Assembly: GCA_021324975.1 (NCBI GenBank)
Contig: JAJPIA010000101.1
Location: 13,924 to 77,923 of the forward strand
DNA from: Bacillota bacterium
Lineage (GTDB): Bacteria > Sysuimicrobiota > Sysuimicrobiia > Sysuimicrobiales > Segetimicrobiaceae
Direction of reading: 5' to 3'
Length of the DNA: 64,000 nucleotides
The first letter of the stretch is position 1, and each line of letters begins with the position of its first letter. Shown one piece after another: positions 3,537-22,236 of the stretch. A program made the position numbers and the translations under genes. The notes beneath the pieces were generated by a model. It was not told where the DNA came from, searched no databases, and saw nothing but the letters and a program-made list of their open reading frames with translations.

Positions 3537-3542
3537 GTCCAC

Positions 3543-4949
3543 ATGTCGTTGGAGGCCGTGCACCGCTACATCGACGAGCACCGGGGGGAATCGCTCAACA
3601 TCCTCCGGGACCTGGTCGCGCGCCCCAGCGTGAGCGCGCAGGACAAGGGCGTCAAGGAGTGCGCGGCGCACCTCGCGGCGCTGCTCCGGCGCTTCGGCAT
3701 CGCCTCCGAGGTCATCCCGACGCCGACGCAGCCGGTCGTCTACGGCGAGATCGTCCGCGATCCCCGCAGCTACACGCTGTTGTGCTACGGGCACTACGAC
3801 GTCCAGCCCCCGGAGCCGCTGGACTTATGGGAGACGCCGCCGTTCGAGCCCACGATCCGCGACGGCCGGCTCTTTGGGCGGGGCGTCGGCGACAACAAGG
3901 GGCAGTTGCTGGCGCACGTGCTCGCGGCGCGCGCTTGGCTCGAGGCCGCGGGTGGTCCGCCCATCAACCTCAAGTTCGTGTTCGAGGGTGAAGAAGAGTC
4001 GGGCTCCCCCAGCCTCGGCGCGTTCGTCCGCGAGCACCGCGCGCGGCTCGCCGCCGACCTCGTGTACATCTCCGACGGCGGCCTGCACCCGTCCGGCGCG
4101 CCCGTGATCTCCCTCGGCAACCGCGGCATCCTGGGGATCACGCTCGTCGCCCAGGGCGCGGACCGCGACAATCATTCCGGCAACAAGGGCGGCGTGGCCC
4201 CGAACCCGGTGTTGATGCTCGTGCACCTCCTCGCGACGATCGTGGATCCCTCGGGGCGCGTGCTCATCGACGGCTTCTACGACCACGTGCGGCCGATCGG
4301 GCCCACGGAATCGGCGTTGCTGGCGACGCTCGACTACGACCCGGTCGCGTTCGGCGCGACGATGGGCCTCCCCACGCTGCCGATGGACGGCCCGACGTAC
4401 TGGAAACGCATCATGCTCGAGCCGTACTTCAACATCAACGGCTTCGCGAGCGGCTATACGGGGCCGGGGTCGAAGACGATCATCCCCTCGCGGGCCGAGT
4501 GCCGCATCGACATCCGCCTCGTCGCGGACCAGACGACGCGCGACATCCTCCACAAGGTCCGGCAGCACGTGGCCAAGATGGATCCCCGCGTGCAGGTGCT
4601 GGAGCGCGGCTTCGGCACCATGGAGGCCAGCCGCACGGCCCCGGACCACCCGGCCGTGCGCGTCATCGCGGAGGCGATTCGCGCCGTGCGGGGCGCCGCC
4701 CCATACATCAATCTCGCCAGCGGGGGCAGCCTGCCGAACGTCGTGTGGCCGCGCGACCTCGGCGCGGACCACCTCGGGGTGCCCTACGCCAACGCGGACG
4801 AGAACAACCACAGCCCGAACGAAAACCTCAGCCTGGAGCGATTCTACGACGGGATCCACGTGAGCGCCCAGGTCTTCGACGCGCTCGCGGAAGCAGCGGC
4901 GGCGGGCACTCTGCGGCGGCAGGGCGCCCGCGACGGGACGTCGAGGTGA
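3543..4949 (+). CDS. M20 family metallopeptidase (dipeptidase/DapE-ArgE-like)
   Basis: Motifs GHYDVQP, GRGVGDNKG and EGEEESGS match the M20 metal-binding and dimerisation regions. A GGGAGG RBS lies 5 nt upstream of the ATG at 3543. The track merges this with upstream junk as 2982..4949. Confidence 0.85.
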   Translation: MSLEAVHRYIDEHRGESLNILRDLVARPSVSAQDKGVKECAAHLAALLRRFGIASEVIPTPTQPVVYGEIVRDPRSYTLLCYGHYDVQPPEPLDLWETPPFEPTIRDGRLFGRGVGDNKGQLLAHVLAARAWLEAAGGPPINLKFVFEGEEESGSPSLGAFVREHRARLAADLVYISDGGLHPSGAPVISLGNRGILGITLVAQGADRDNHSGNKGGVAPNPVLMLVHLLATIVDPSGRVLIDGFYDHVRPIGPTESALLATLDYDPVAFGATMGLPTLPMDGPTYWKRIMLEPYFNINGFASGYTGPGSKTIIPSRAECRIDIRLVADQTTRDILHKVRQHVAKMDPRVQVLERGFGTMEASRTAPDHPAVRVIAEAIRAVRGAAPYINLASGGSLPNVVWPRDLGADHLGVPYANADENNHSPNENLSLERFYDGIHVSAQVFDALAEAAAAGTLRRQGARDGTSR

Positions 4950-4973
4950 GCCCGCGGCCGACGGCCCGGGTCC

Positions 4974-5081
4974 CTACCGGCGCGCGATGTGGGGATCCAG
5001 GATCTCGCGCACCCGGTCGCCGAGGAGATTGACGGCAAGAACCAGGACGAGCAGCGCGAGCCCCGGGATCGTGCTCACCCA
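4974..5081 (-). pseudogene. relic C-terminus of an ABC (Dpp/Opp-type) permease
   Basis: The last about 35 codons of track ORF 4974..6119(-) read VWVSTIPGLALLVLVLAVNLLGDRVREILDPHIARR, matching the conserved DppC/OppC C-terminus (compare the intact permease at 44575: [31 protein letters not shown]). No upstream body is present. Confidence 0.5.
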
Positions 5082-6280
5082 CACAACTGGCGCGTCCCGA
5101 TCATGCACACCTCTTCGGCCATCGCGCGGCCCGGCGCCACGCCGTGTACGATGATCCCGATCTCGTGCGCCGGCGTGCGCACGGGCTCCAGATCCCCCAT
5201 GACGCCGTTTCGGCCGAAGACCTGATAGTGCAGCTCGTAGCCGGCGCGGCCGAACCGCGCTTCGACGGCGCGGCGCGCCCATTCGATGACCCGGTCGATG
5301 TTGGCGATGGTGTAGGGATCGCGGACCCCCGCGATGCCAACGTAGCGCTCCCCGACCTTGCCGGCGCCCTCGAGCTTGACCTGCAGCTCGGCGGCAGGGC
5401 GCCACACGGGCCCCGTGATGCGCGTCGTGCGCGCGTCGAACTGCTCGTACCGGCAGTGCCGCATGTCGAGCTCGCCGCCGAGCGCGTACTCGGAGAAGGG
5501 CGTCGCACGCTCGTACATGGCGTGGGCGGCGACCGACGCGACGGTGCAGCGTTGGTCGGGATGCATCGCCGTCACCCTGACGTCGTCCTCGGAGATCTCG
5601 CCGATCACGCTCTCCTTGGCGCCGTACGGCTCGGCGCAGAACGAGGCGCACTCCAGCACCTTGCCGAGATAGTAGGCCAGCGCCTCCGGAAAGCCGGCGC
5701 GGATCGCCGGCCCCGCGCAGATCGCGAGGTCGCTGCTGCGGCCGCCGATGATGACCTGGGCGCCCATGTCGAGCAGCCTGTTGTACGGGTGGATGCCCGC
5801 CAGCGCGACGATCCGGTCCGTGCGCTCGAGATCCTCGACGGTCAGGTCGGCGCGGCCATTCAATCCCGCCACGCGCTCTCCCGCCTCGAGCCGCTCCTTC
5901 ACCAGCTCCTTGGAGACCTCCGAGTAGAAATACCCGAGGCGAAACGGCGCAAGGCGGTGGCGTGCCGCGATCTCCCGGATCATCTCCACGTAGAGGTCCA
6001 CGCGGCTGTTGGACCCCGTGTCGCCCGCCGAGCCGATGAGCATCGGCACGCCGAGCTTGCGGCACGCGAGCACAATGTGCTCCAGATCGTGACGCTGCCA
6101 CTCCTGCGGGCTCGCGCACGTGTCCGACCCCAGGGGGCCGGGCCCGATATCGTCGCTGCCGGAGTCCGAGACGATGAAGTCGGGCCGGGCCGCCACCCCG
6201 AGCTCGAAGCTCCCGGGTTGGAGCGGTGCAAACCCCAGGTGTCCGTTCGGCGCCAGAAAGCGCAGTGTCTTGCCCGTCAC
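5075..6280 (-). CDS. AtuA-like protein (DUF1446, acyclic terpene utilisation family)
   Basis: The N-terminus MTGKTLRFLAPNGHLGFAPLQP...IVSDSGSDDIGP and the overall length fit the AtuA/DUF1446 family. GTG start with a GGGAGG RBS upstream. Confidence 0.7.
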   Translation of the reverse strand: MTGKTLRFLAPNGHLGFAPLQPGSFELGVAARPDFIVSDSGSDDIGPGPLGSDTCASPQEWQRHDLEHIVLACRKLGVPMLIGSAGDTGSNSRVDLYVEMIREIAARHRLAPFRLGYFYSEVSKELVKERLEAGERVAGLNGRADLTVEDLERTDRIVALAGIHPYNRLLDMGAQVIIGGRSSDLAICAGPAIRAGFPEALAYYLGKVLECASFCAEPYGAKESVIGEISEDDVRVTAMHPDQRCTVASVAAHAMYERATPFSEYALGGELDMRHCRYEQFDARTTRITGPVWRPAAELQVKLEGAGKVGERYVGIAGVRDPYTIANIDRVIEWARRAVEARFGRAGYELHYQVFGRNGVMGDLEPVRTPAHEIGIIVHGVAPGRAMAEEVCMIGTRQLCG

Positions 6281-6293
6281 GCTCCGCCTCCCG

Positions 6294-7127
6294 TCACGGC
6301 GCGACGTGCGCCAGCCGCTCGATGTTGAACCTGTACCAGTCGCCGCGGTAGACGGCTCGGCGATACTCCAGCGGCTCGCCCCGCGCCGTCGAGACCAACG
6401 ACGTCACCTCGAACACCGCGGCCGGCCGGCCGAGCGCCAGCAACGCGCCTTCGTCCGCGGTCGCCAGGCGCGCCTCAAACGTTTGCTCCGCCCGCAGCTC
6501 GTGCACCCCGGCGCGCTCCGCGTAGGCGTCGCAGAACATGCGGGGCGAGGTTCCGGTCTCAACGGCGCGACAAAAATCATCCAGGGCGCCGGCCACCTTG
6601 GGGGCGGAGAAGTAGCTGCGATAGATCGCGAGCGGCTCGCCGTCGCCAAGGCCGAGGCATACCAAATGCACGAGCGTCGACGCCGGCGGGACGCCGAGCA
6701 GCCGGCTCAGCACGACATCACACGGCAGGAGCGTCCGGCTCACGATGCGGAGTCCCGGCGTGATGCCCTGCGCCGCGAGCGCCTCGCGAAACGCCGTGAC
6801 GCGGCCGAGCGGCTGCGTGATCGCGCCGTGCGATGCGACGAACGTGCCGCGTCCCTGGATCTTCTTGAGCAGGCCTGCCGCGGAAAGGTGCTCCAACGCT
6901 TGGCGCACGGTCGAGCGGCTCACGCCAAACTGCTCGGAGAGGTCCCGCTCAGACGGCAGGCGCCCCTCGGCCTCCCAATCACCCCTGCGCATGCGAACGG
7001 TGAGGGAGCTCAGCAGTTGGCGATAGAGCGGCGCCTCGCCAGCCCGCGTGGCGGCGCGTCCCTTCCGCCCGCGGCGTCCGTCCGGTGCACGTGTGACCCC
7101 AATCGATGCTTTGTTAGACTGGTCCAT
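6294..7127 (-). CDS. GntR family transcriptional regulator (HutC/UTRA subfamily)
   Basis: Winged HTH (LPSERDLSEQFGVSRSTVRQALEHLSAAGLLKKIQGRGTFV) plus a C-terminal UTRA-like domain. Confidence 0.85.
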   Translation of the reverse strand: MDQSNKASIGVTRAPDGRRGRKGRAATRAGEAPLYRQLLSSLTVRMRRGDWEAEGRLPSERDLSEQFGVSRSTVRQALEHLSAAGLLKKIQGRGTFVASHGAITQPLGRVTAFREALAAQGITPGLRIVSRTLLPCDVVLSRLLGVPPASTLVHLVCLGLGDGEPLAIYRSYFSAPKVAGALDDFCRAVETGTSPRMFCDAYAERAGVHELRAEQTFEARLATADEGALLALGRPAAVFEVTSLVSTARGEPLEYRRAVYRGDWYRFNIERLAHVAP

Positions 7128-7208
7128 ACCGATTTAGAATTGGTACGTACCACCCCACCGACACGTATTCCTGCCGTGTTGCCCGGGGCCTGAAAAATGG
7201 CCGGGGCG

Positions 7209-8648
7209 CTAGCGCACGGCGCCGGCCGCGGCCGCCCGCCGCAGCGGCGCGGGCAGGACGTCCTCGGGGATCGGGCAGCGATAGCCGCGGCCCGCGGTCC
7301 GCTCCTTGAGCTCCGCCTTCGCCCGGGCGAGCAGCCCGGGATCCCGGATCACGTCGAGGGCCGTCGCCGCCATCACCTTCGCCGCGTGCACCATGCCCTT
7401 GTGCGCCGCGGGCGCCATGCCCTGCGCCACGAGCTGCCACGAGTGCCCGGGCGTCCCCACCGCAAAGCACGCGCCCCACATCTGCACGGTGGGCACGATC
7501 CAGCTGACGTCGCCCACGTCCGTCGACCCGCCGAGCACCCGCGGCGTGGGATCGAGCGGCACCGGCGCGCCGTACAACACCGACTCCGCCGCTTCCGGGG
7601 TCCCGTTCGTTTCGACGGCGTGCGCGATGTCGTCAGGCGTCAGCGTTCCGCGGATGCGCTCGGCAAAGGCCATGTCCTCGGCGTCGAACGGGACCGGGCC
7701 GACGCGGGTGAGGTTGGCGTGCATCGCCGCGGCGAGCGTCATGTTCGGGACGATGTTCGAGCACGCCTTGTCGATCTCGTGCGTCGCTTCGGTCTCCGTC
7801 ATGAGCGCGGCGCCGTCGGCGATCTTGCGCACGCGCGCAAACAGGGCCCGGGCCTGCTCCACCTCCGGCGCCCGGATCAGATAGAGCACCTCCGCCCTGG
7901 GCTGCACCACGTTCGGCGAGATGCCGCCGGCGTCCGTGATCGAATAGTGCACGCGCGCGGCGGGCGGCATGTGCTCGCGCAGGAAGTTGACGCCGATGTT
8001 CATCAGCTCGACGGCGTCGAGCGCGCTGCGGCCGAGATGCGGCGCCCCGGCGGCATGCGATGCCCTCCCGGAGAACCGCCAGTACACCTGGAAGTTCGCG
8101 AGGGAGCTTCGCGACATCACCGCCGCGAAGCATCCGGGGTGCCACGACACCGCGGCGTCCAGGTCGTCGAACGCGCCGGCGCGGGCCATGAATGTCTTGC
8201 CGGAGCCGCCCTCCTCCGCGGGGCAGCCGTAGAAGCGCACCGTTGCCTTGAGGCCGGTGGCCATCAAGTAGTTGCGCAGCGCCACGGCGGCGAGCGCCGC
8301 CCCCGCGCCGAGGAGGTTGTGCCCGCAGCCGTGGCCGACGGCGCCGGGCGTCGACGTCCGGGGCTCCGCGACGCCGGCATCCTGGCTCAGCCCCGCCAAG
8401 CCGTCGTACTCGCCGAGGAGCGCGATCACCGGGCCGCCCCGGCCCGACTCCGCGACGAACGCGGTGTCGATGCCCGCGACGCTGCGGGTGATGCCGAAGC
8501 CTTCCTCCTCGAGCGCCGCGATGTGCGCGGCGACGGATTTGTGCTCGTTGAACCGCAACTCCGCGAGCCGCCAGATCTCGTCGGCGAGCGCGACAAAGGT
8601 GTCCCGCTTCGTGTCGACCTGCCGGGTGATGAGCTCGATGTCGGACAT
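7209..8648 (-). CDS. M20D family amidohydrolase (AbgB/hippurate-hydrolase-like)
   Basis: Motifs HGCGHNLLGAGAALAA and GCPAEEGGSGK are M20D signatures. The track ORF runs to 8825, but the upstream part is low-complexity; the ATG for MSDIELITRQ is at 8648. Confidence 0.85.
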   Translation of the reverse strand: MSDIELITRQVDTKRDTFVALADEIWRLAELRFNEHKSVAAHIAALEEEGFGITRSVAGIDTAFVAESGRGGPVIALLGEYDGLAGLSQDAGVAEPRTSTPGAVGHGCGHNLLGAGAALAAVALRNYLMATGLKATVRFYGCPAEEGGSGKTFMARAGAFDDLDAAVSWHPGCFAAVMSRSSLANFQVYWRFSGRASHAAGAPHLGRSALDAVELMNIGVNFLREHMPPAARVHYSITDAGGISPNVVQPRAEVLYLIRAPEVEQARALFARVRKIADGAALMTETEATHEIDKACSNIVPNMTLAAAMHANLTRVGPVPFDAEDMAFAERIRGTLTPDDIAHAVETNGTPEAAESVLYGAPVPLDPTPRVLGGSTDVGDVSWIVPTVQMWGACFAVGTPGHSWQLVAQGMAPAAHKGMVHAAKVMAATALDVIRDPGLLARAKAELKERTAGRGYRCPIPEDVLPAPLRRAAAAGAVR

Positions 8649-9000
8649 GTGCGGTCTCTCCCTCCCGAACCTGGTGTGGCATGTCCCTTCGCGACGCCGC
8701 CGCCGAAATCCGCCGCCCCGCGAAGGCACGTCGGAGCCTGGCGGCACGGATCGTCCCGTCGCCGATCCAGGACTACCTGATCGCCGCGTGGTACTGATGT
8801 TGCATGACATCACGTAGACGCGCACGAGGATCCAAGCGAGTCAGCGCGGGGACGAGAGGGCGCCGTGCGGCGCGGGGCCCGCGCGCCGGGGACCGCGAAC
8901 TCCGCGAGGTCATCCGGCTGCAGACACTCTCCGGCACCGCGCTCAAGGATGCCCGGATTCCGATCGCGGTCGAGCCGGCCGCGGTGTTTCACACGCTCCC

Positions 9001-10473
9001 GTGAACGATCCGCTCTTCGCTACGATCGGCGAGCTGCACGCCGGGCTGCGGCGCCGCCGCATCTCGTCGGTCGAGCTCACGCGGCTTGCGCTGGATCGCC
9101 TGTCCACGCTGGGCCCGCGGTACAACGCCGTGGCGCGCGTGCTCCCGGAGCACGCCCTCGAGGAGGCCCGAAACGCGGACCGGATGCTGCGGCGCGGGCG
9201 GACCACGAGCCCGCTCACGGGGATCCCGTACGGCGCCAAAGACCTCGTGGCGCTGCGCGGCGTGCCGACCACGTGGGGCGCCAAACCGTATGCGCGCCAG
9301 GTCTTCGACTACGACGCGGCCGTCATCGAGTCGCTCCGCCGGGCCGGCGCCGTCCTCGCGGCCAAGCTGGCCATGATCGAGCTCGCCGGCGGCGGCGGTT
9401 ACCGCTATCCGTCGGCGTCCCTCACCGGCCCCGCCCGCAATCCGTGGAACCCCGATCACTGGACCGGGGGTTCGTCGAGCGGGACGGGCGCCGCGGTGGG
9501 GGCCGGCATGGTCCCGTTTGGGATCGGCTCGGAGACCTCCGGCTCGATCCTCTCGCCGTCGTCCGGGTGCAACGTGACGGGGCTCAGGCCCACCTACGGG
9601 CTCGTCAGCCGCTACGGCGCGATGGCGTTGTCATGGACAATGGACAAGCTCGGGCCGATGTGCCGCAGCGCCGAGGACTGCGGCTTGGTGCTCGAGGCCA
9701 TCGCCGGACCGGACCCACGCGACCCCGGGTCGGCCGGCCGCACCTTCCGCATGAACCGGCGTCCGATCAGGCCGGGCGCGCTCCGCGTGGGGTACGCGCC
9801 GGTGGACTTCGAGGAGACCGCCCAGCCGTCGATCCGCGCCGCGCTCGCCGGCGCCCTCCGCGCGTTTCGCCGCCTCGGCGTCCGGCTGCGGCGGATGGAG
9901 CTCCCGCGCCTTCCGATCGATTCGGCCGCCCGGCTCATTATCCGCGCCGAAGGGTCCACGATCTTTCAGGATCTGATCGAAAGCGGGCGCGTCTACGAGC
10001 TCGCCGATCGCCGTCAGGCCGTCGGGTTGGTCGCGGGGCTCGAGGTGCCGGCGCGCGATTACCTCAATGCGATGCGGGTGCGCAGGCTGGTCCAGGAAGC
10101 CTGCGCGCAGCTCCTGCGCGAGGTCGACGTCATCGTGGCGCCCGCCCGGCCCGGTCCGTCCCCGCGGATCGACGAACCGATCGACCCGGAGTGGCGTCCC
10201 GCCCGTCCCAGGCACCGCGCCGCGGCCGGGGCGCGGGCGTTCCCGCCGGCGCGGGGGAACGCGGCGTTGACGGCCGCCGGCAACCTCGCGGGCCTCCCCG
10301 GCCTGTCGCTGCCGTGCGGATTCAGCGCGGATGGGCTGCCGGTGGCGGTGCAGCTCGTCGGCCGGCCGTTCGAGGACGCGACGGTGATCGATCTGGGGCG
10401 CGCGTTTCAAGGCGCCACGGACTGGCACCGACGCCAGCCGGCGATCCCGCCGGTGCGCGGGCGGAGCCGGTAG
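9001..10473 (+). CDS. amidase (amidase-signature family, GatA-like)
   Basis: Amidase-signature motifs GGSSSGTGAAVGAG and GSETSGSILSPSS with the Ser-cisSer-Lys core. GTG start. Confidence 0.9.
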   Translation: MNDPLFATIGELHAGLRRRRISSVELTRLALDRLSTLGPRYNAVARVLPEHALEEARNADRMLRRGRTTSPLTGIPYGAKDLVALRGVPTTWGAKPYARQVFDYDAAVIESLRRAGAVLAAKLAMIELAGGGGYRYPSASLTGPARNPWNPDHWTGGSSSGTGAAVGAGMVPFGIGSETSGSILSPSSGCNVTGLRPTYGLVSRYGAMALSWTMDKLGPMCRSAEDCGLVLEAIAGPDPRDPGSAGRTFRMNRRPIRPGALRVGYAPVDFEETAQPSIRAALAGALRAFRRLGVRLRRMELPRLPIDSAARLIIRAEGSTIFQDLIESGRVYELADRRQAVGLVAGLEVPARDYLNAMRVRRLVQEACAQLLREVDVIVAPARPGPSPRIDEPIDPEWRPARPRHRAAAGARAFPPARGNAALTAAGNLAGLPGLSLPCGFSADGLPVAVQLVGRPFEDATVIDLGRAFQGATDWHRRQPAIPPVRGRSR

Positions 10474-10513
10474 TGGCGGCCTCCTCGACCGGGGTGACGC
10501 GGGATACGTTCGC

Positions 10514-12259
10514 ATGACGCTGCTGGTGCACGAGCGGATCCCGAGGACGCTCGACCGGTTGCTCGAGCACCTGCGTGACGATGATCTGCGCGGCGCCCTG
10601 GTGCAAGCGTGGCTGTTCGAAGGTGCTCCGGCCCGCCGCGCCGCCGAGACCACGCTCAACGCGGCCGGAGTCCGCGCCCGCCTGCGGAGCGCCTACAAGC
10701 CGCTCGTACACTACTTCATGGAAGAGGTCAGGATCTCGGACCTGCGGCGAGCGAGGATCCGGTATCCCGTGCACGAGCTGGCGAGCCCGGAGCGGTTCCT
10801 CGTGGAGGCGTATCCCCTCGCGGCGATGCTGTCCGGCATCGACGCCCGCTTCATCCCGGCGGGACCCACGCTGAGCTATGGGGTCGAGCTCGAAGACCGG
10901 CACGGCGCCCTGACCACCAGCGATGTCCGGGTCCCCTGCCGCGTGGGTGACGACCATCTGGGCGAGCGCACGCTCGCGCCCTGCGGGTGGCTGCGCATCA
11001 CCGGTTCGCACAACGGGCGCCGCGACGTCGACGAACCGCTCGCGACCGAATACGAGGCCGTCTATCGCGCGGTCATCGCCGCCGTGCGCGCGTATCCCTG
11101 GCGCGAGCGCGAGCCGTATTTCGACCGCTTGGTGATCCAGGCCGCCATCCCGGATGCCGAGCAGCGGTTGCCCTACGGCGACGAATGCGCGAGCACATTC
11201 GAGGCCCTGCATGAGGATATTTACTTCTCGCTCCTCGAGCTGCTGCGGCGCCACGCGGGCCGCGCGCCGGACGAACGGGCCGGGCAGCCGGGACAGATCG
11301 TGCCCGACATCCGGCGCGCCGTGGACACGCCGGAAGTCCGCGTGGCGCTGGAGCCCGCCGGGGCGGACGAGGAACCGGGTCCCGCCGTCCCTCTCGAACG
11401 CGCCGATCACGCCCTGCCCCTCGCGCAGATCGCGGATGAGCTTGCGCGGCTCCCCGGGGAGCGATTCGCGGCAACGTCGCGACAGGGCCGGACGGTGGCA
11501 GGAATCTACCGCGCCGGGACGCGTCCGGCCATCCTGATCACCGCAGGCCAGCACGCCAATGAGACCTCGGGCGTCGTCGGCGCGCTGCGGGCGGCGCACC
11601 GCCTGGCCGCGGCGCCCGGCGCGCACTTCGCGTTGATCCCGCTGGAGAATCCCGACGGATACGCGCTGCACCGCCGGCTTTGCGCCGTGCATCCGCGGCA
11701 CATGCACCACGCGGCGCGATACACGGCGCTCGGGGACGACCTGGGGGCAAGGGCCCAGGAGCCCTGGTACGAGAAAGGCGCACGTCTCCAAGCGCAGCGG
11801 CTCGCGCGCCCGGCGCTGCATGTCAACCTCCACGGATATCCCGCCCACGAGTGGACGCGCCCGTTCTCCGGGTACCTCCCGCGCGGCTTCGAGCGGTGGA
11901 GCGTCCCCAAGGGGTTTTTCCTGATCGTCCGCTACCACCCGCACTGGGCCGATCGCGCCCGCGAGTTTCTGGCCCGGCTCACGCGCAGGCTCGCGGATGT
12001 CCCCGGCCTCACGCCGTTCAACCAAACCCAGCTCGCGACGTATCGGGCCCACGCGGGTGAGCCGGCGTTCCCGATCTACCATGACGTCCCGTGCGACATC
12101 ACGGAGGACGCGAACGCCGCGACGCCGCTCGTGCTCATCACGGAGTTCCCGGACGAGACGATCTACGGCGACGTGTTCGTCCTCGCGCACACCGTGCAGA
12201 TGGAGACGGTGCTCGCCGCCGAGGAGATCCACGCGGCCCTCGAGGGCGCGGGCGGCTGA
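10514..12259 (+). CDS. M14-like zinc carboxypeptidase / succinylglutamate desuccinylase-aspartoacylase superfamily protein with a long N-terminal domain of unknown function
   Basis: A central HxxE zinc motif (AILITAGQHANETSGVVGAL...IPLENPDGY) and a downstream His (NLHGYPAHEW). The roughly 320 aa N-terminal part has no motif I recognise. Confidence 0.6.
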   Translation: MTLLVHERIPRTLDRLLEHLRDDDLRGALVQAWLFEGAPARRAAETTLNAAGVRARLRSAYKPLVHYFMEEVRISDLRRARIRYPVHELASPERFLVEAYPLAAMLSGIDARFIPAGPTLSYGVELEDRHGALTTSDVRVPCRVGDDHLGERTLAPCGWLRITGSHNGRRDVDEPLATEYEAVYRAVIAAVRAYPWREREPYFDRLVIQAAIPDAEQRLPYGDECASTFEALHEDIYFSLLELLRRHAGRAPDERAGQPGQIVPDIRRAVDTPEVRVALEPAGADEEPGPAVPLERADHALPLAQIADELARLPGERFAATSRQGRTVAGIYRAGTRPAILITAGQHANETSGVVGALRAAHRLAAAPGAHFALIPLENPDGYALHRRLCAVHPRHMHHAARYTALGDDLGARAQEPWYEKGARLQAQRLARPALHVNLHGYPAHEWTRPFSGYLPRGFERWSVPKGFFLIVRYHPHWADRAREFLARLTRRLADVPGLTPFNQTQLATYRAHAGEPAFPIYHDVPCDITEDANAATPLVLITEFPDETIYGDVFVLAHTVQMETVLAAEEIHAALEGAGG

Positions 12260-12290
12260 CGGCGCGGTCCCGCCTCGGGGATCGTCGGCG

Positions 12291-12752
12291 CTAGGCGACC
12301 TGCACGATCATCTCGATCTCGACGGCGATGTCGAACGGCAGCGCCGCCATGCCGACGGCCGACCGGGCGTGGCGCCCGCGGTCGCCGAACACCTGGACGA
12401 GCAGGTCTGAGGCGCCGTTGATGACCTCGGGCTGCTGCAGAAAGTCCGGCGTGCTGTTGACCATGCCGAGGAGCTTGACCACGCGCTGCACGCGATCGAG
12501 GTCGCCGATCACCTCGCGCAGCGACGCGAGGCAGTTGAGCATCACGAGCCGCGCCGCCTCGTAGCCCTCGGTCACGGAAAAGTCCCGGCCCAACTTGCCG
12601 CGATACGTGAGCTTCCCGTCCTTGACGGGTCCGTGACCGGACACGAACACCAGGTCGCCGGCGCGCACCGCGCCGACGTAATTCGCGACCGGCGCGGGCG
12701 CCGCCGGTAGGACGAGGCCCATGACACTGAGCTTCTGCTCGATTTGGGACAC
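12291..12752 (-). CDS. RidA/YjgF family reactive-intermediate deaminase
   Basis: Typical RidA length and motifs (GDLVFVSGHGP...YEAARLVMLNCLASL...PFDIAVEIEMIV). Confidence 0.9.
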   Translation of the reverse strand: MSQIEQKLSVMGLVLPAAPAPVANYVGAVRAGDLVFVSGHGPVKDGKLTYRGKLGRDFSVTEGYEAARLVMLNCLASLREVIGDLDRVQRVVKLLGMVNSTPDFLQQPEVINGASDLLVQVFGDRGRHARSAVGMAALPFDIAVEIEMIVQVA

Positions 12753-12847
12753 GGGGAATCCTCCACGCGGGCCGTGTCGGTGGATCTATCGCGGCGGTTC
12801 ACGTTCCACGTGCCGCCGGCGCGTTCCTGGGGGATGCCGGCCGGCGC

Positions 12848-14293
12848 GTGGAGAACCGACCGATGCGGACCTTGCGCCATGCCCCGACCGGGGAGGAAGA
12901 ATCCGTGGACACGGACCTCTGCTTTCTGCCGGCCACCGCCCTCAGCGAACGGATCCGGCGGCGCGACGTCTCGCCGGTCGAGATCGTGACCGCCCTGCTC
13001 GAGCGCATCGACCGGTACAACGGCGTGCTCTTTAGCTACATCACGGTCTGCGCCGACGCCGCGCTCGCCGCGGCCCGCGAGGCGGAGCGCGAGATCACGG
13101 CCGGCCGCCGGCGCGGGCCGCTCCACGGGCTCCCGATCTCGCACAAGGACATCGTGTTCACGCGCGGCGTGCGGACGACATGCCATTCCCGGACGATGCT
13201 CGACGTCGTTCCCGACGCCGATGCCACCGTGGTGCGCCGCCCCGCCGAAGCCGGGATGATCCTCCTCGGGAAGACGAACACAACGGAGTTCGCGATCGGC
13301 ACGATGGACGTCTTTGGCACCTCGCGGACGCCTTGGAACCCGGCGTACTATTCGGGCGGGTCGAGCGGCGGCGCGGGCAGCTCGCTGGCCGCGGGGCTGG
13401 CCGTGGCCGCGACGGGCTCGGATACCGGCGGGTCGATCCGCATCCCCGGCGCCCTGTGCGGGATCGTCGGCCTCAAGCCGACGTACGGCCGGGTCAGCCG
13501 CCACGGGGTGTTTCCGCTCAGTTACAGCATGGACCACGTGGGGCCCATGTGCCGGACCGTCGGGGATTGCGCCCTCCTCCTGGGCGCGCTCGCGGGCCGC
13601 GATCCGCTCGACCCCACGTCGTCATCGCCCCCGGTGCCGGATTACGCGGCCGCCCTTGCGGGCGACATCCGAGGCCTGCGCCTCGGCGTGCCCCGGCAGC
13701 ACTTCTACGATCATCTCGATCCCGGGGTGGATCGCGCGGTGCGCGCGGCGCTGCGCCACCTCGAATCGCTCGGCGCCGTGCCGGAGCCGCTGGACCTCCC
13801 GCGGGCGTCCGAGGTCGGCGCCGTCGGGTGGGCTCTGCTGGCCGCGGAGGCGTTCGCGGCCCACGCCGCGCTGCTGCGCAAGCGCTCCGCGGACTACGGT
13901 GTCCGAGCGCGCCAGCGCATCGCGGGGGGCGCGTTTCTCACGGCGGCGGAATACCAGCAGGCGGCGCAGATCCGGGGGCTCTGGATGGGCGAGGTCGGCG
14001 CGGCGTTGCAACGCGTGGACGCCATCGTGACCCCGACGACGCCGTTTGCCGGCATCTCCGTCGAGGCGCAAAATAGCAAGCCGCCGGACACGACACGGAA
14101 CACCATCCCGTTCAACCTCACGGGCCACCCGGCCCTCACGCTACCCTGCGGCTTTACGGACGACGGCCTCCCCGTCGGACTGCAACTCATCGGGCGCGCG
14201 TTCGACGAGGCGATGCTGTTCCGGATCGGCGCCGCGTATGAGCACTCCACGGAGTGGCACACGCGACGTCCGGCATTGGAGGTGCGGGCGTGA
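12848..14293 (+). CDS. amidase (amidase-signature family)
   Basis: Motifs GGSSGGAGSSLAAG and GSDTGGSIRIPGALCG. The start is either the GTG at 12848 or the ATG at 12863. Confidence 0.9.
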   Translation: MENRPMRTLRHAPTGEEESVDTDLCFLPATALSERIRRRDVSPVEIVTALLERIDRYNGVLFSYITVCADAALAAAREAEREITAGRRRGPLHGLPISHKDIVFTRGVRTTCHSRTMLDVVPDADATVVRRPAEAGMILLGKTNTTEFAIGTMDVFGTSRTPWNPAYYSGGSSGGAGSSLAAGLAVAATGSDTGGSIRIPGALCGIVGLKPTYGRVSRHGVFPLSYSMDHVGPMCRTVGDCALLLGALAGRDPLDPTSSSPPVPDYAAALAGDIRGLRLGVPRQHFYDHLDPGVDRAVRAALRHLESLGAVPEPLDLPRASEVGAVGWALLAAEAFAAHAALLRKRSADYGVRARQRIAGGAFLTAAEYQQAAQIRGLWMGEVGAALQRVDAIVTPTTPFAGISVEAQNSKPPDTTRNTIPFNLTGHPALTLPCGFTDDGLPVGLQLIGRAFDEAMLFRIGAAYEHSTEWHTRRPALEVRA

Positions 14294-14472
14294 TCGCGCT
14301 TACCAAGGAGTGGCTCCGGGCCGAGGCTGCCTCCCACGGCCTCGCGTTGACGGAGACGGACGTCGACGCGATCTATGAGCGGCTCGTTGAAATCAAGACG
14401 GCGCTCACCGTCCAACGGCCCGAGGACACCGCGACGCTGGAGCCGCCGTACCGCTTCGCGCCGCCCGGCTGA
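14290..14472 (+). CDS. small GatC-like / AtzG-like (DUF4089-type) protein, putative amidase partner
   Basis: GTG start overlapping the amidase stop (GTGA). The about 60 aa product reads VIALTKEWLRAEAASHGLALTETDVDAIYERLVEIKTALTVQRPEDTATLEPPYRF, resembling the helical GatC N-terminal region. The track lists a longer version from 14254 that lies inside the amidase. Confidence 0.45.
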   Translation: MIALTKEWLRAEAASHGLALTETDVDAIYERLVEIKTALTVQRPEDTATLEPPYRFAPPG

Positions 14473-14475
14473 GCC

Positions 14476-14697
14476 ATGGGGCGCGCGCGGGGATTCACGC
14501 TCGTCGAGATGATGGTCGTGCTGGCGATCCTGGCGATCGTGGTGGCCGCCGGCTTGTACATCGCCGCGCGCCTGCGGCCCAGCAGGCCCGCGGCCGGGCA
14601 CGCGCTCGCCCGGCCGGGATCGATCGTCCCGCAGCCGACGACCTGGGCCGGCCCCGCCTGTCAGGAAGACGGGCGCCCGGCTGCCGCGATCACCTGA
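14476..14697 (+). CDS. prepilin-type N-terminal cleavage/methylation domain protein (type IV pilin-like)
   Basis: MGRARGFTLVEMMVVLAILAIVVAAGLYIAA is a canonical class-III signal with G/FTLxE and a hydrophobic helix. It overlaps the 3' end of the convergent lyase gene by 37 nt, and its context is odd. Confidence 0.4.
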   Translation: MGRARGFTLVEMMVVLAILAIVVAAGLYIAARLRPSRPAAGHALARPGSIVPQPTTWAGPACQEDGRPAAAIT

Positions 14698-16163
14698 TCG
14701 CACCGGCCCCGCAGCACGGCGCGGCTTGACTCGAGGCGCTCCCGGGCCGCGGCCAGCCACCGCTCCACGCCCGCCAGCCCGGCCGCGGCCGCGTCGAGCT
14801 CCGCGTCGATCGCCGTAGGGCCGGGACCGCCGATGCCCCGTCGCGCCGCCACGAACGCGCGCGCATCGAGAAGCGCCTGCAGCTCCGCGGTCGGGAACGC
14901 GAGCGGCCGTCCGAGCACGGTACCGCTCACATCCCGCATCAACGATTCCGTCCACATGCGCGGATCGGGCACGCGTTGCACCATCGCCGAGACGACGGCA
15001 TGCGCCTGCCGCTGTGATGTCCCGTGCCGGCGCACGATCGCGTCCATGAGCTCCGTCGCGGTCGCACCCGAAGCCACGACGTCGTCCGGCGGCACGCCGG
15101 GACCGATGGCCATCGATCCCAGTGCCAGGCCGAGGAGCTGCGCGGTGTCCGTGGCGTCGTCCAACGTGCGCCAGAGGTCCACCTGCAGCTCGGATGTCGC
15201 GCGGTTGTCGTCCTCGAACGGCGTCGCCGCGACCCCGGCCACCTGTCCGGCGAGCACGCCGGCCGCGCGCGCGGCGCGCGCGCGGAGGTGCTCGACGAAC
15301 ACGAGGTTGCGTTTCTGCGGCATCATGCTGCTCACTTGGACGAACCCGGGATCCAGCGTGACGACCGGCGGCGACCCAGCGGCCCACAGGTCGAGCGTGG
15401 CCAACATGCGACTCGCACCGGCGACGGCCACGCCACACGCGGCGAGCGTCGCGAGCGCGTAGTCGGCCCCGGCGACGGCATCGTACGTGTTCTCGACCAG
15501 CCCGTCGAACCCCATCAGCCGCGCCAGTTCGGTCCGGTCGAGCGGAAACGCGGTGCCGGCCAAGGCGCACGCGCCGAGCGGCGACCGGTTTACCTCTTCG
15601 TACGCGAGCCGGTAGCGGGCGAGGTCGCGGAGCACCGCATCGGCGTAGGCGGCGAGCACGTGGCCGACGGTCGTCGGCTGCGCGGGCCGGCCGTGGGTGC
15701 GCGCCACCACGAGCGTGTCGCGGCCGCCGCGGGCACACGATGCGGTCGCGCGGCCGAGCGCGACCGTAGCACCGACGACCATCAAGAGCCGGGTGCGCAC
15801 GACAACCCGGAAGGCCGCCGCGTCCAGGTCGTTCCGGCTCCGCGCGAGCTGCAGGTTCCCCGCGATGTCGGCACCGAGGCGATCGATCAGCGCGCGCTCG
15901 AGCGCGAAGTACACGTCCTCGACGTCGGGATCGTACTCGAGGGAAGCAGCCGGCACCGCATCCAGCGCATTCAACCCTTCGAGGAGGCGGGCCGCGTGCT
16001 CCGGCGAGAGCACGGCCGCGGAAGCGAGCGTCACCACGTGCGCGCGGCTCGCATCGATCAAGACCGGGTAGAGATCGACCTTCCACGCGTCGAAGATCGG
16101 CTTGAGGACCGTGGCGCGGTAGCGGTCTCTGAGGTCGTGGCGCCCCGCGTGTGCGTCGTCCAC
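14661..16163 (-). CDS. argininosuccinate lyase family protein (class I fumarase/aspartase lyase superfamily)
   Basis: Lyase-1 signature SSMMPQKRN; SRNDLDAAAFR and the N-terminal LYPVLIDASRAHVVTLAS resemble ArgH. The track ORF extends to 16322 through Arg-rich junk; I placed the start at the in-frame GTG at 16163 (VDDAHAG), giving 500 aa. Confidence 0.8.
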   Translation of the reverse strand: MDDAHAGRHDLRDRYRATVLKPIFDAWKVDLYPVLIDASRAHVVTLASAAVLSPEHAARLLEGLNALDAVPAASLEYDPDVEDVYFALERALIDRLGADIAGNLQLARSRNDLDAAAFRVVVRTRLLMVVGATVALGRATASCARGGRDTLVVARTHGRPAQPTTVGHVLAAYADAVLRDLARYRLAYEEVNRSPLGACALAGTAFPLDRTELARLMGFDGLVENTYDAVAGADYALATLAACGVAVAGASRMLATLDLWAAGSPPVVTLDPGFVQVSSMMPQKRNLVFVEHLRARAARAAGVLAGQVAGVAATPFEDDNRATSELQVDLWRTLDDATDTAQLLGLALGSMAIGPGVPPDDVVASGATATELMDAIVRRHGTSQRQAHAVVSAMVQRVPDPRMWTESLMRDVSGTVLGRPLAFPTAELQALLDARAFVAARRGIGGPGPTAIDAELDAAAAGLAGVERWLAAARERLESSRAVLRGRCDQVIAAAGRPSS

Positions 16164-16228
16164 GATGCGGCCTCCGTTTCCGCGCGCAAACGGCACCGGC
16201 TGCGCGGCCGGCGGCGGGCCGGTTGCGC

Positions 16229-17218
16229 CTACGGCAGGCTCTGCAGCACCTGCCAATCCACGTTGCCGCCGCTGAGCACGACGGCGACTCGGGCGTCGGG
16301 CTCGACGGGGAGACGCCCGCACAGGAGGGCGGCCAGCCCCGCGGCGCCGGCCGGTTCGACGACGAGCTTGGCGTACTCCAACACCGCCTTCATCGCCTCG
16401 CGGATCTCCGTGTCGGACACCAGGACGACCTCATCGACGAACCGCCGCACCGCGGCCAACGTCAGCTCCCCGGCCATCGGCGCTGTGAGACCGTCCGCGA
16501 TCGTGTCGATCGAGTGGAGCCGCGTGACGGCGTTGCGCCGGAGCGCGGTCCACAGCGTCGGTGCCCCCTCGGGCTCCACGCCGAACACGCGTGCCCCCGG
16601 CCGACTCGACTTGACGGCCGAGGCCACACCGGAGATCAAGCCCCCGCCGCCGATCGCGACAACGACCACGTCCACGTCCGGGAGATCCTCCACGATCTCG
16701 AGTCCCACCGTGCCCTGGCCGGCGATGATGTGCGGATCGTCGAACGGGTGCACGAGCGTGAGGTTGCGGGCGTCGCGCAGCTGATGCACCCGTTCAAACG
16801 CCTCGTGCATCGTGCCGCCGAGGACGACCTCGGCGCCGTAGGCCCGGCACGCCGCAACCTTGAGCAGGCTGGCGTGCGCCGGCATGACGACCGTCGCATG
16901 CAGCCCCTCCGTCGCCGCGCCGTACGCGAGGGCCTGGGCGTGGTTGCCGGCTGAGATCGTCACGAGGCCGCGGCGTTTGTCCTCGCCGGAGAGATGGCGG
17001 AGCTTGTTGAGCACGCCGCGCGGCTTGAACGATCCCGTCTTCTGAAGATTCTCGGCTTTGAAATAGAGGCGGACTGCCGCCCGTTCGCCCAGGATTCTCG
17101 AGCTCAACAGCGGCGTACGGTGGACGCGTCCCTGGATGACCTCTCGGGCCGCCAGGATGTCGTCCAGGGTGGGAAGTGTCGGGGTCAGCGCTGTTGCGAC
17201 GCCCGAAACGCCGCCCAC
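16229..17218 (-). CDS. threonine/serine dehydratase (PLP-dependent, fold-type II)
   Basis: PLP-lysine motif FKAENLQKTGSFKPRG, with GGGGLISG and the ISAGNHAQALA glycine loop. The track ORF 16229..18079 is a read-through artefact. A GTG at 17218 gives 329 aa and overlaps the upstream M20D gene by 34 nt. Confidence 0.85.
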   Translation of the reverse strand: MGGVSGVATALTPTLPTLDDILAAREVIQGRVHRTPLLSSRILGERAAVRLYFKAENLQKTGSFKPRGVLNKLRHLSGEDKRRGLVTISAGNHAQALAYGAATEGLHATVVMPAHASLLKVAACRAYGAEVVLGGTMHEAFERVHQLRDARNLTLVHPFDDPHIIAGQGTVGLEIVEDLPDVDVVVVAIGGGGLISGVASAVKSSRPGARVFGVEPEGAPTLWTALRRNAVTRLHSIDTIADGLTAPMAGELTLAAVRRFVDEVVLVSDTEIREAMKAVLEYAKLVVEPAGAAGLAALLCGRLPVEPDARVAVVLSGGNVDWQVLQSLP

Positions 17219-18366
17219 AGCTCGTCCGACGCGCCGGGGCGGTACATCACGTCGACCGCCGTCATGGCCAGCCCCTTGGCGGCATTGAGCATTGCGGCGT
17301 ACCCCCGCTCGGACCGCGCCGCCTCGCGAAACTCCGGCGTATGTCCCGCGGCGTCGTCCGTGATCGCCAGGTAGGGATGGATCGTCGGCGCGACCAGGCT
17401 GACGTTGCCGATGTCGGACGACCCGACGCCGCCGTGCTCCGGCGGCGCCTCGCCGCGGATGCCGAGCCGCGCCAGGTTGTCGCCGAAGTAGCGCGCGAGG
17501 ACGGGGTTGTTGTTGCGCTCCGCGTACACGAGCCCCTGCGCAAACTCCACCCGGGCGCCCGTGGCCGCGGCGGCGCCCTCGGCACACCCCTTGACTTTCG
17601 CCATCACGTCGACGAGCGCGGCACGCGTGTTGGCACGCACGATAAACTCGCCCTGCGCCAACGCCGGGACGACTTTGGGCGCGTCCCCGCCCTTTGTGAT
17701 GATCCCGTGGATCCGGACGTCGCTCGTGACGTGCTGCCGCAGCGCATCGATCGCGTGGTACGTGAGCAGTAGCGCGTTGAGCGCGTTGACGCCCTTCTCC
17801 GGCGCGGCGGCGGCGTGCGACGACTTGCCGTGGAACGTGATCGTGAGCCCCTGCGCGGCGAGCGCGCCCCGGACCCACCAGTTGTTGCGCGACGGGTGAA
17901 ACATCATCGCCGCGTCCACGCCCTCGAAGACGCCCTGCTCCACCATCGGGATCTTGCCGCCCGTGGTTTCCTCGGCCGGCGTGCCCAGCACGGTCAGCGT
18001 CCCGGGCAGCGTGGGAACCGCGCGGTGCAGCGCGACGGCCGCGCCGACGCTCGCCATGCAGATCAGGTTGTGGCCGCACGCGTGCCCGACGCCCGCGAGC
18101 GCGTCGTACTCGGCGATCAGCGCCACATGAGGTCGAGCGCGCTCGCCCTTGGTCGCCGCGCGAAATGCGGTCGCCATGCCGGCGATCGGCTGCGTCACCG
18201 CAAACCCGTGCTCCCGCAGCAACCCGGTGAGCCAGCGCGCCGCCTGGCGCTCCTGCAGCCCGACCTCGGGCGTCTCGTGGATCCGCGCGCTCAGGCCGAC
18301 GAAGGTCTCCCGCATCGCATCGACCTGGGCGCAGACGTTGTCCTTCAGCGCATCCACATCATGCAT
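17185..18366 (-). CDS. M20D family amidohydrolase
   Basis: Motifs HACGHNLICMASVGAAVAL and GTPAEETTGGK; 393 aa. Confidence 0.85.
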   Translation of the reverse strand: MHDVDALKDNVCAQVDAMRETFVGLSARIHETPEVGLQERQAARWLTGLLREHGFAVTQPIAGMATAFRAATKGERARPHVALIAEYDALAGVGHACGHNLICMASVGAAVALHRAVPTLPGTLTVLGTPAEETTGGKIPMVEQGVFEGVDAAMMFHPSRNNWWVRGALAAQGLTITFHGKSSHAAAAPEKGVNALNALLLTYHAIDALRQHVTSDVRIHGIITKGGDAPKVVPALAQGEFIVRANTRAALVDVMAKVKGCAEGAAAATGARVEFAQGLVYAERNNNPVLARYFGDNLARLGIRGEAPPEHGGVGSSDIGNVSLVAPTIHPYLAITDDAAGHTPEFREAARSERGYAAMLNAAKGLAMTAVDVMYRPGASDELWAAFRASQQR

Positions 18367-18448
18367 TACATCGCCACCTCGGGGGAGATCGCCGGATTAC
18401 GCATAGCCTTCTCCGGCGCCGCGACGCGCCCCTGTGGGATCCGGCCGC

Positions 18449-19195
18449 TCACATGCTGCGTCCGCCGGTCACCTCGATCACCGCGCCCGTGACGAAGCTC
18501 GCCATCTCGCTGGCGAGGAACAGCGCGACGGTCGCGACCTCCTCCGGACGCCCGTTCCGGGCGAGCGGCGTGTCCTTGGCGCGCTGGGCCATCGCTTCCT
18601 CGCCCATCGCGCGCGTCATCGGCGTGTCGATGAAGCCGGGCTGGATGGCGTTCGCCCGCACGCCGTACCGCGCGTACTCCCGCGCCGTCACCTTGGTGAG
18701 CGCGACGATCCCGGCCTTGGCCGACGCGTAGTTCGCCTGCCCGAAGTTGCCGATCTTCCCGGAAATCGAGGAGAGGTTGACGATCGCGCCCCGCCCGGCC
18801 TTGCGCATCCGCCCGCCGACGGCGCGGGTGCACAAAAAGGTGCCGCGGAGGTGCACGTTCAACACCAGGTCCCACTGCTCGTCGGTCATCTTCGCGATCG
18901 TGACGTCGCGAGTCAGCCCGGCGTTGTTCACGAGCACGTCGATCCGGCCAAACATCTCCTCGGCCGCGGCCACGCCGGCCTCCACCTGGCCGGCGTCCGA
19001 GACGTCCACCCGCGCCGCTCCCGCGCGCCGGCCGAGCGCCCGCACGGCCTCCACCGTCTCGCCTGCGCCGGCTTCGTTGACGTCGAAGACGAAGATGTCG
19101 CTGCCCTCCCGGGCGAACAGCAGCGCTACGGCCCGGCCGATCCCGGATCCCGCGCCCGTGATCAGCGAGACTCGATCGCGCAGCAACGGCTCCAC
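18449..19195 (-). CDS. SDR family oxidoreductase (FabG-like)
   Basis: TGAGSGIGRA Rossmann motif, NNAG, and the YASAKAG catalytic YxxxK. Confidence 0.9.
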   Translation of the reverse strand: MEPLLRDRVSLITGAGSGIGRAVALLFAREGSDIFVFDVNEAGAGETVEAVRALGRRAGAARVDVSDAGQVEAGVAAAEEMFGRIDVLVNNAGLTRDVTIAKMTDEQWDLVLNVHLRGTFLCTRAVGGRMRKAGRGAIVNLSSISGKIGNFGQANYASAKAGIVALTKVTAREYARYGVRANAIQPGFIDTPMTRAMGEEAMAQRAKDTPLARNGRPEEVATVALFLASEMASFVTGAVIEVTGGRSM

Positions 19196-19196
19196 G

Positions 19197-19649
19197 TCAT
19201 CCTCCCTTCGGCGAGCGCACCTTGATCAGGAGGGGCACGTTGCCCTCCTGCACCACGTCGCCGCGCTGATTGACGAGCTCGATGCGGCGCTCGATGAGCC
19301 CCCGGTCGCCCGCGGACGTCAGGCGCTTCCCCGTGATCTGCATCCGGACGTGGACGGTGTCGCCGATAAGCACCGGCCGCTTGAAGGACCACGTCAGCCC
19401 GGGAACCGCGATCGTCGTCTCGCCGAACAGGCCGAGGCGCACGACCAGCCCCATGCCGATCGCGATCCCGAGATTCCCGTGGGCGATTCGCTGCCCGAAC
19501 GGCATCGTCTTCGCAAACTCAGCGTCGGTGTGGATGGGATTCCAGTCGCTGGACAGCGACGCGAACGTGACGACGTCGGCTTCGGTGATCGTGCGGCCGG
19601 CGGTCTCAAAGACCTGTCCGACCTCGACGTCTTCGTAGTAGAGGCTCAC
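19197..19649 (-). CDS. MaoC-like (R)-specific enoyl-CoA hydratase / hot-dog dehydratase
   Basis: SSDWNPIHTD...AHGNL hot-dog hydratase motif; its stop is 1 nt before the SDR start. Confidence 0.85.
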   Translation of the reverse strand: MSLYYEDVEVGQVFETAGRTITEADVVTFASLSSDWNPIHTDAEFAKTMPFGQRIAHGNLGIAIGMGLVVRLGLFGETTIAVPGLTWSFKRPVLIGDTVHVRMQITGKRLTSAGDRGLIERRIELVNQRGDVVQEGNVPLLIKVRSPKGG

Positions 19650-21824: not shown

Positions 21825-22013
21825 TTACTGTCCGCTGCCGTCGCCCTGCGCATTACCCCGGAAATAGTCCGGCGTCGAGCCTGCGCCACCGGCGGTTGCA
21901 CCGATGCTGACGACGCTATTGTCGGCCAACGCCGCGCCGGGCACCAGAGCCACAACCCCCACCAACACTAACCCAGCCAGTGCACCGGCGACGACCTTCC
22001 ACAACCGCTCCAT
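21825..22013 (-). CDS. small secreted/membrane-anchored Gly-rich peptide (62 aa), hypothetical
   Basis: MERLWKVVAGALAGLVLVGVVALVPGAALADNSVVSIGATAGGAGSTPDYFRGNAQGDGSGQ. A strong GGAGGTG RBS lies 7 nt upstream of the ATG at 22013. It is directly downstream of the DCC gene on the same strand. Confidence 0.45.
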   Translation of the reverse strand: MERLWKVVAGALAGLVLVGVVALVPGAALADNSVVSIGATAGGAGSTPDYFRGNAQGDGSGQ

Positions 22014-22236
22014 CGTGATCACCTCCCCTGAATTTTTGGTGCACGTACATCGTACTCGGCCACGGCCACCCCCACCTTGATCCTCGTCACACTCCCGCGT
22101 GATCTTGCTCACACAGATGACCAACGGGCGTCGAACCCGACGCAGGGGATCCTGCGCGGGCTCTTCGTCGCGATATTGTTCGTGACCGTCGCGACCGAGG
22201 ATATGCGCAGACTCGCGCCGCGGCCTGCGGAAGGGA

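Follow-up and report, generated by a model that had tools for sequence, protein, structure and literature searches.

Is the very short open reading frame (ORF) that starts on the stop codon of an amidase gene a gene in its own right, and is its product a partner of the enzyme? This question is raised by a locus at positions 12291-14472 of a 64,000-nucleotide (nt) stretch, hereafter the window, of contig JAJPIA010000101.1 from a Bacillota bacterium (GenBank assembly GCA_021324975.1). The amidase gene ends in GTGA, where a GTG-initiated ORF of about 60 codons begins (14290..14472), as an initial annotation had said and as can be read directly. That annotation regarded the locus as an arrangement of the AtzE-AtzG type, after the 1-carboxybiuret hydrolase of Pseudomonas sp. 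ADP (PDB 6c62), in which a GatA-derived amidase works with a short GatC-derived subunit and without GatB (PMC6219798). The present locus shares this concept, and the description that fits it best is that of a new and so far unannotated lineage of heteromeric amidases derived from GatCA, which would work like AtzE/AtzG from outside that family.

To call genes in the window, whose G+C content is about 70%, more than ORF length was needed. An ORF of this size is by itself uninformative at such a composition: between 8 and 20 kb we counted 100 ORFs of at least 40 amino acids (aa), abundant in every frame. A filter on the G+C content of third codon positions left one coding frame per region and picked three genes here, namely 12291..12752 on the minus strand, a plus-strand gene ending at 14293, and a short plus-strand frame ending at 14472. 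The features of the amidase and its small neighbour, called the mini-gene and the mini-protein below, are as follows.

12905..14293, plus strand: GatA-like amidase-signature (Ser-cisSer-Lys) amidase, 462 aa from GTG 12905 (PF01425)
14290..14472, plus strand: mini-gene, encoding a short GatC-like protein of 60 aa and proposed as a non-catalytic subunit (from sequence, family, hhalign, and AlphaFold2 with Foldseek)
14278..14284, plus strand: Shine-Dalgarno-like GGAGGTG inside the 3' end of the amidase coding sequence, with 5 nt between it and the mini-gene start (from sequence; putative function)

The amidase stop codon TGA (14291-14293) shares three bases with the mini-gene, whose GTG occupies 14290-14292, so that the two genes overlap by the 4 nt GTGA. 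The longest ORF of the amidase runs from GTG 12848 and has 481 aa. GTG 12905 is probably the true start, since GGAGG lies 8 nt upstream of it (12892-12896) and the orthologue in a close relative (L003) starts at the equivalent codon. The mini-protein reads (M)IALTKEWLRAEAASHGLALTETDVDAIYERLVEIKTALTVQRPEDTATLEPPYRFAPPG. Its frame has an earlier GTG at 14254, which would give 72 aa. This start was ruled out, and 14290 is the supported one, because the orthologues at L002-L005 have an ATG precisely at the equivalent of 14290, within an ATGA overlap; the family alignment also begins there. Here and below, L numbers denote the loci fetched from relatives, of which L001-L005 are from the five closest genomes, with amidases 66-92% identical to that of the window.

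Several lines of evidence indicate that the mini-ORF is a real gene. The G+C content of its frame is 0.83 at third positions versus 0.53 at second positions. Four close homologues of 60-64 aa are 70-98% identical to it, and searching 1.84 billion cluster representatives with a profile of these recovered 44 members of the mini-family at E <= 0.001, of which about 40 are proteins of 58-96 aa matched end to end. The pairwise ratio of nonsynonymous to synonymous substitution rates (dN/dS) among copies from close relatives was 0.18-0.57, as compared with 0.21 for the amidase of the window and that of L001, and it indicates that the mini-ORF is under purifying selection. Taken together, the third-position G+C content, the conservation across relatives and dN/dS make the frame more than a chance product, and they rule out a spurious ORF of high-GC DNA. 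Public sources that give the mini-proteins a name call all of them "hypothetical protein". At L005, L029, L045 and L050 the amidase and/or the mini-gene was split over frames, which may reflect assembly frameshifts or pseudogenes.

We then examined what lies next to the mini-gene in other genomes. At all of L001-L005 the amidase stop lies in an (A/G)TGA overlap with the start of its homologue. Six distant members of the mini-family were looked up in public assemblies, and wherever upstream DNA was present (L043, L044, L045, L047-49 and L050) an amidase ended at or overlapped the start of the small gene; the contig of L046 was too short to show the upstream gene. The upstream gene was a 59%-identical amidase at L044 and a PF01425 amidase at the others, and the amidases of these distant loci were 54-60% identical to the enzyme of the window. 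Overall, the partner amidases were 54-92% identical to it and formed one clade with it and with those of L001-L005 in a rough neighbour-joining tree. The conservation of the small ORF downstream of orthologous amidases, on which the initial annotation had staked its proposal, is thus borne out by tight linkage in close and distant loci alike. The other neighbours varied: peptide-type ATP-binding cassette (ABC) transporters, a hydantoinase A/B fusion, DegT-type aminotransferases, and M42 and M55 peptidases at some loci, and S58 and M24 peptidases, dehydrogenases and amidohydrolases at others. A RidA-like gene stood beside the pair only in L001, L002 and L005, the three closest relatives with upstream DNA. 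Because the other neighbours vary among loci and RidA is confined to these three, the two-gene pair is the conserved unit.

What kind of protein does the mini-gene encode? In the GatCAB complex, GatC contacts GatA through two N-terminal helices, which pack with it into a hydrophobic bundle, spans the GatA-GatB interface with a loop and pairs with GatB through a C-terminal strand; the folding and stability of GatA need GatC (PMC4027206). The best match of the mini-family profile among PDB sequences was Aquifex GatC, from residue 1 to the conserved Glu-Pro (EP) (E 0.1). By hhalign, the mini-family matched the N-terminal segments of five PDB GatC proteins with a probability of 93.4% (E 2.4e-7, 50 columns), and a 24-sequence alignment of bona fide GatC (PF02686 members) with 92.0% (E 6.7e-7, 55 columns). 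The columns aligned with GatC stopped at the (V/L)EP motif. Reversed and column-shuffled GatC controls scored at most 11.1, versus 37.1 for the real alignment. A template-free AlphaFold2 model of the mini-protein had a mean predicted local distance difference test (pLDDT) score of 84, with helices at residues 6-15 and 22-42 and an extended tail. When this model was compared by Foldseek with 350,542 PDB chains, the top nine were six GatC chains, AtzG (6c62_C) and two more GatC chains, the top GatC chains having TMq values of 0.60-0.64. The likeness to GatC or AtzG that had been proposed at the outset is therefore upheld. The mini-protein aligned with GatC residues 1 to about 53, that is, two helices and the EP motif, and it ends 8 residues past that motif, whereas the true GatC proteins of L036 and L034 run about 40 residues further. 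On sequence and model, it looks like a cut-down GatC that has the EP motif and both of the helices by which GatC binds GatA but not the C-terminal half.

The likeness to AtzG was less pronounced. AtzG (68 aa) is not itself catalytic. It assembles with AtzE into an obligate heterotetramer, and in its absence AtzE is insoluble; the pair is believed to have arisen from GatCA (PMC6219798). The mini-family matched the AtzG family with a probability of 53% over 34 columns, in register; this alignment scored 26.7 and the best shuffled control 20.8. AtzG 6c62_C came seventh in the Foldseek ranking with a probability of 0.35. The comparison of the mini-family with a single AtzG sequence was uninformative (probability 0.6%). 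Since the AtzG family itself matched GatC with only 12%, versus 92% for the mini-family, the family of the window is, as judged by these alignments, more GatC-like than AtzG is. The mini-gene is thus real, GatC/AtzG-like and tightly linked to the amidase, and a heteromeric amidase on the model of AtzE/AtzG is, by analogy, the best reading of the locus.

The mini-protein could instead be an independent small protein that is merely co-transcribed (a regulator, an antitoxin-like protein, or a peptide substrate or precursor), or the gene could be left untranslated, its product resembling GatC only as any pair of helices would. We regard this as improbable. It would account for a very simple fold and for the failure to match any curated family, and one proteobacterial homologue matched a model of precursors of ribosomally synthesized and post-translationally modified peptides (RiPPs) weakly and below threshold (17.4 bits versus 28). 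It would not account for a small gene that, in distant lineages and in either order, is strictly adjacent to one clade of amidases, for purifying selection, or for profile matches that are specific to GatC with clean controls and a top of the Foldseek list made up exclusively of GatC and AtzG. Moreover, the partner enzyme is itself GatA-like, a coincidence that would otherwise be hard to explain.

The amidase was examined for its family, its active site and its substrate-binding residues. It matched PF01425 with 377 bits against a cut-off of 27 (E 1.8e-112). The catalytic Lys (PISHKD), cis-Ser (GGSSGG) and nucleophilic Ser (GSDTGGSIR) are all kept and align with those of GatA and AtzE, so that the active site is intact and the protein is predicted to be a catalytically competent Ser-cisSer-Lys amidase. 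It fell below the cut-off of every specific NCBIfam model, including PRK06169 (336 of 506 bits) and GatA (TIGR00132; 329 of 481). Among solved structures (GatCAB being represented by PDB 2f2a, 3h0l and 4wj3) its closest relatives were GatA chains, with 305 bits for 4wj3_A, as compared with 196 bits for AtzE (6c62_A). By these scores it is GatA-like yet not GatA.

Two residues of the glutamine site point to its substrate. Arg358 of Staphylococcus aureus GatA, which binds the carboxylate of glutamine (PMC2811023), has an equivalent in the amidase (RQRI), and the enzyme thus has both the triad and the carboxylate-binding Arg in common with GatA. At the position of Asp425, whose yeast counterpart D418 recognises the bound glutamine (PMC4027206), the amidase of the window and all members of its clade have a 3-residue deletion or a residue other than Asp, whereas true GatA proteins (L034, L036, L038 and the PDB chains) have Asp. 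With an Arg358 equivalent retained and the Asp425 position lost, the enzyme probably acts on a carboxylate-bearing amide other than free L-glutamine, which it would not bind in the manner of GatA. Peptidases, amidohydrolases and Dpp/Opp-type transporters among the gene neighbours suggest the scavenging of peptide-derived or other organic-nitrogen amides.

These properties bear on how far the AtzE/AtzG comparison can be taken. In its strongest form, the initial annotation had the pair as a comparable system whose substrate would be an unstable N-carboxy or ureido intermediate and whose reactive products RidA would scavenge. The pair would then be an AtzE/AtzG orthologue, that is, a 1-carboxybiuret hydrolase or a close equivalent. 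The design is indeed the same, an amidase with a helical protein of about 60-70 aa (68 in AtzG, 60 here); AtzG appears high in the Foldseek ranking and aligns in register; the AtzE family models do match the amidase; and RidA adjoins the pair in the window as in L001, L002 and L005. The AtzE matches, however, are far under their cut-offs (TIGR02715, 277 of 426 bits; NF006631, 286 of 461), the amidase is only 32% identical to pADP-1 AtzE, and AtzE falls outside its clade in the rough tree. All AtzG relatives carry PF13318, which misses the mini-protein, and the shuffled AtzG control reached 20.8, as against 26.7 for the real alignment. The gene order is reversed: in pADP-1 atzG precedes atzE, while in the window the amidase precedes the mini-gene. 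The third gene of the atzG-atzE-atzH set encodes the DUF3225/NTF2-like AtzH (PMC6219798), whereas the neighbours in the window are the RidA-like gene, an ORF with a prepilin motif and a lyase gene, and no gene like AtzH/DUF3225, AtzD, AtzF, allophanate hydrolase or biuret hydrolase was found among the Pfam-scanned genes at 0.6-30.6 kb. RidA is absent from most loci of the family. We therefore consider orthology to AtzE/AtzG very improbable. Of the original comparison, the amidase with a small helical partner stands; a tie to a cyanuric-acid-type pathway does not, as no AtzE/AtzG pathway is found at the locus, and the pair is nearer to GatC/GatA in both subunits (305 versus 196 bits; 92% versus 53%).

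That the two proteins are instead the genuine GatC and GatA of this organism, or an extra set of them, with GatB encoded elsewhere and Gln-tRNA or Asn-tRNA as the product, is hardly credible: GatA chains and GatC are the best solved relatives of the two proteins and the triad and Arg358 equivalent are kept, but the TIGR00132 cut-off is not reached, the mini-protein has 60 aa against about 90-95 in GatC and lacks the roughly 40 C-terminal residues that reach GatB (PMC4027206) as well as a PF02686 match, the Asp425 equivalent of the glutamine site is missing (PMC2811023, PMC4027206), the order of gatC then gatA is inverted, no GatB-like Pfam family occurs among the genes scanned at 0.6-30.6 kb, and genuine gatC-gatA loci (L034, L036 and L038, with upstream GatC ORFs of about 90-95 aa from the likeliest start) look different and branch apart.

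We consider it likely, then, that the locus is a two-gene module descended from the GatC-GatA part of GatCAB and is now a free-standing, tRNA-independent amide hydrolase with a small scaffold subunit. The large protein would be the Ser-cisSer-Lys hydrolase and the small one would be non-catalytic. The latter is predicted to retain the part of GatC that packs on GatA, from the N-terminal helix through the loop and the long helix to the EP segment, and to have lost the half that crosses over to GatB. It would most likely bind the amidase as an obligate subunit for folding and stability, as GatC/GatA and AtzG/AtzE suggest by analogy. Through the 4-nt overlap and the Shine-Dalgarno-like site inside the amidase gene, the synthesis of the two proteins would be coupled. 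Because the mini-protein keeps exactly the GatA-binding part and ends after the EP motif, its most likely role seems to be that of a scaffold subunit, stoichiometric with the amidase and coupled to it in translation. We infer the physical complex, the chaperone-like role, the translational coupling and the substrate class from these features.

The fetched loci were all searched with models of the mini-family, and sister clades of the amidase proved to carry homologous mini-genes as well. Amidases of Methylomirabilota/Rokubacteria, about 50% identical to that of the window, have a 58-61 aa homologue directly upstream, in the ancestral gatC-gatA order (alignment A6); one example reads MEKLTVDTLRTLAKAQGLELSD...TEPASQYRIF. 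This family matched the mini-family of the window with 97.7% (E 1.5e-12) and GatC with 87.7%. Amidases of Beta- and Alphaproteobacteria, about 46% identical, have a 64-69 aa homologue that overlaps their stop codon as ATGA (alignment A4), downstream as in the window. It matched the mini-family with 73.5%, and its C-terminal motif differs (EPxPPVFPREDF). The partner amidases of the two sister clades together are 46-51% identical to that of the window. At a Dehalococcoidia locus (L031) another variant of the mini-gene lies upstream. Such lineages form a wider set, which includes the present locus and in which the small gene may stand on either side of the amidase.

A broader proposal is that short GatC-like proteins are obligate partners of a broad superclade of GatA-like catabolic amidases, spread over Bacillota-like metagenome-assembled genomes (MAGs), Methylomirabilota, Proteobacteria and Dehalococcoidia, that they are intermediates between GatCAB and AtzEG which Pfam and NCBIfam do not see, and that the small gene moved from upstream to downstream at least once. 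On this we are evenly divided. If it is true, many "amidase" genes have products that, expressed by themselves, are insoluble or inactive, and AtzEG is a late offshoot of an old radiation and not a singular vestige.

Two further observations were made on the downstream and tandem genes of these relatives. At L006-L015, L017, L018, L028 and L037 (Methylomirabilota/Rokubacteria and neighbouring MAGs) the gene that overlaps the amidase stop by 4 nt is in most cases not GatC-like; its product is either lipoprotein-like, with about 96 aa, or has about 100 aa and an Smr-like HGRGIG motif, and the GatC-like gene sits upstream of the amidase instead. In L024, L030 and L033 (Chloroflexota/Dehalococcoidia; about 100-7344) five head-to-tail amidase-signature paralogues occur with no detectable GatC-like mini-gene, and these amidases are nearer to AtzE than the clade of the window is in the rough tree.

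Several results weigh against a heteromeric amidase derived from GatCA. The mini-protein matched no Pfam or NCBIfam family by HMMER: the GatC family PF02686 gave no match at E <= 1 for it and matched 1 of 46 family members (E 0.036), and the AtzG-like family PF13318 (formerly DUF4089) likewise missed it and matched 1 of 46 (E 0.13), so that the search with the DUF4089 and GatC models by which the initial annotation would have been checked came out negative; scans of the mini-protein, its orthologues and the 46 family members gave scattered sub-threshold matches only. The E-values from hhalign are those of single, hypothesis-driven comparisons. Those from Foldseek were weak (0.09-1.2), and the structural case is made by the ranking and by probabilities from 0.99 down to 0.35. 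Binding between the amidase and the mini-protein is only suggested, by conserved adjacency and overlap. The amidase tree is a rough neighbour-joining tree with no support values. Finally, no mini-gene was detected beside related amidases of Bryobacteraceae, of L032 and L035, or of the tandem arrays in Chloroflexota, and the partner is therefore not universal among GatA-like amidases.

In the literature searched, AtzE/AtzG was the only GatCA-derived, tRNA-independent amidase complex. The present locus and its relatives indicate that this design recurs in several unannotated lineages, nearer to GatCA than AtzEG is, and that the small subunit has been missed or left unnamed by gene callers and family databases. 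This extends a known mechanism and adds no new one. In practice, the expression of these amidases, for biocatalysis or for work on the catabolism of organic nitrogen in soil and sediment MAGs, probably needs the 60-aa partner to be co-expressed, and a model of the mini-protein family would improve annotation.

The divergent side of the locus has two features.

12291..12752, minus strand: RidA/YjgF-family gene, 153 aa, divergent from the amidase (PF14588, PF01042)
12753..12904, strand not assigned: 152 bp of intergenic DNA that separates the divergent RidA-like and amidase genes; from its position, a presumed promoter region

The RidA gene is where the initial annotation had placed it. Its product matched PF14588 (E 2.5e-28, 99 bits) and PF01042 (E 1.5e-16, 61 bits), which assigns it to the wider YjgF/RidA superfamily, and it did not reach the cut-off of TIGR00004, the Rid family of detoxifying hydrolases (41 bits versus 106). 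A part for it in the system was rejected on synteny: the gene is absent beside the pair in L003, L004, L043, L045, L047 and L050, and it is best seen as a lineage-specific local neighbour. A sigma-70 consensus scan found no promoter-like site in 12753..12904, a promoter and terminator scan of 12200-14800 gave nothing useful, and Rfam and tRNA scans of the window gave no matches.

Immediately after the pair, 4 nt past the mini-gene stop, begins a plus-strand ORF of 73 aa (14476-14697) with a prepilin-type N-terminal cleavage/methylation motif (PF07963, E 1.2e-9; TIGR02532). It has no globular domain, is kept in L001 (86% aa identity, dN/dS 0.30), and overlaps with its 3' end a convergent lyase gene by 37 nt, an odd site for a pilin-like gene.

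The window has another amidase gene ahead of the one that ends at 14293, at 9001..10473; a search with the family models found no second mini-gene beside this first amidase or elsewhere in the window. Both amidases are part of an island (1435-19649) rich in hydrolases of amide and peptide bonds, with three M20 peptidases (2982-4949, 7209-8825 and 17185-18366), an M14-like protein (10514-12259), an AtuA-family protein, an argininosuccinate-lyase-like gene (14661-16322), an EamA transporter, and GntR/UTRA and AsnC regulators. The gene order from the M20 peptidase at 7209 to a short-chain dehydrogenase/reductase (SDR) at 18449 is kept in L001. Further downstream, at 22000-26800, the G+C content drops to 0.625-0.63 from about 0.70, with a strong AT skew (0.23 at 22-24 kb), and the ORFs there have no Pfam match save a weak PATR repeat. 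This stretch is followed on the minus strand by a gene for an adenylate-cyclase/AAA/TPR protein of 891 aa (27218-29893) and then by one for a Crp-like regulator (29958-30653).

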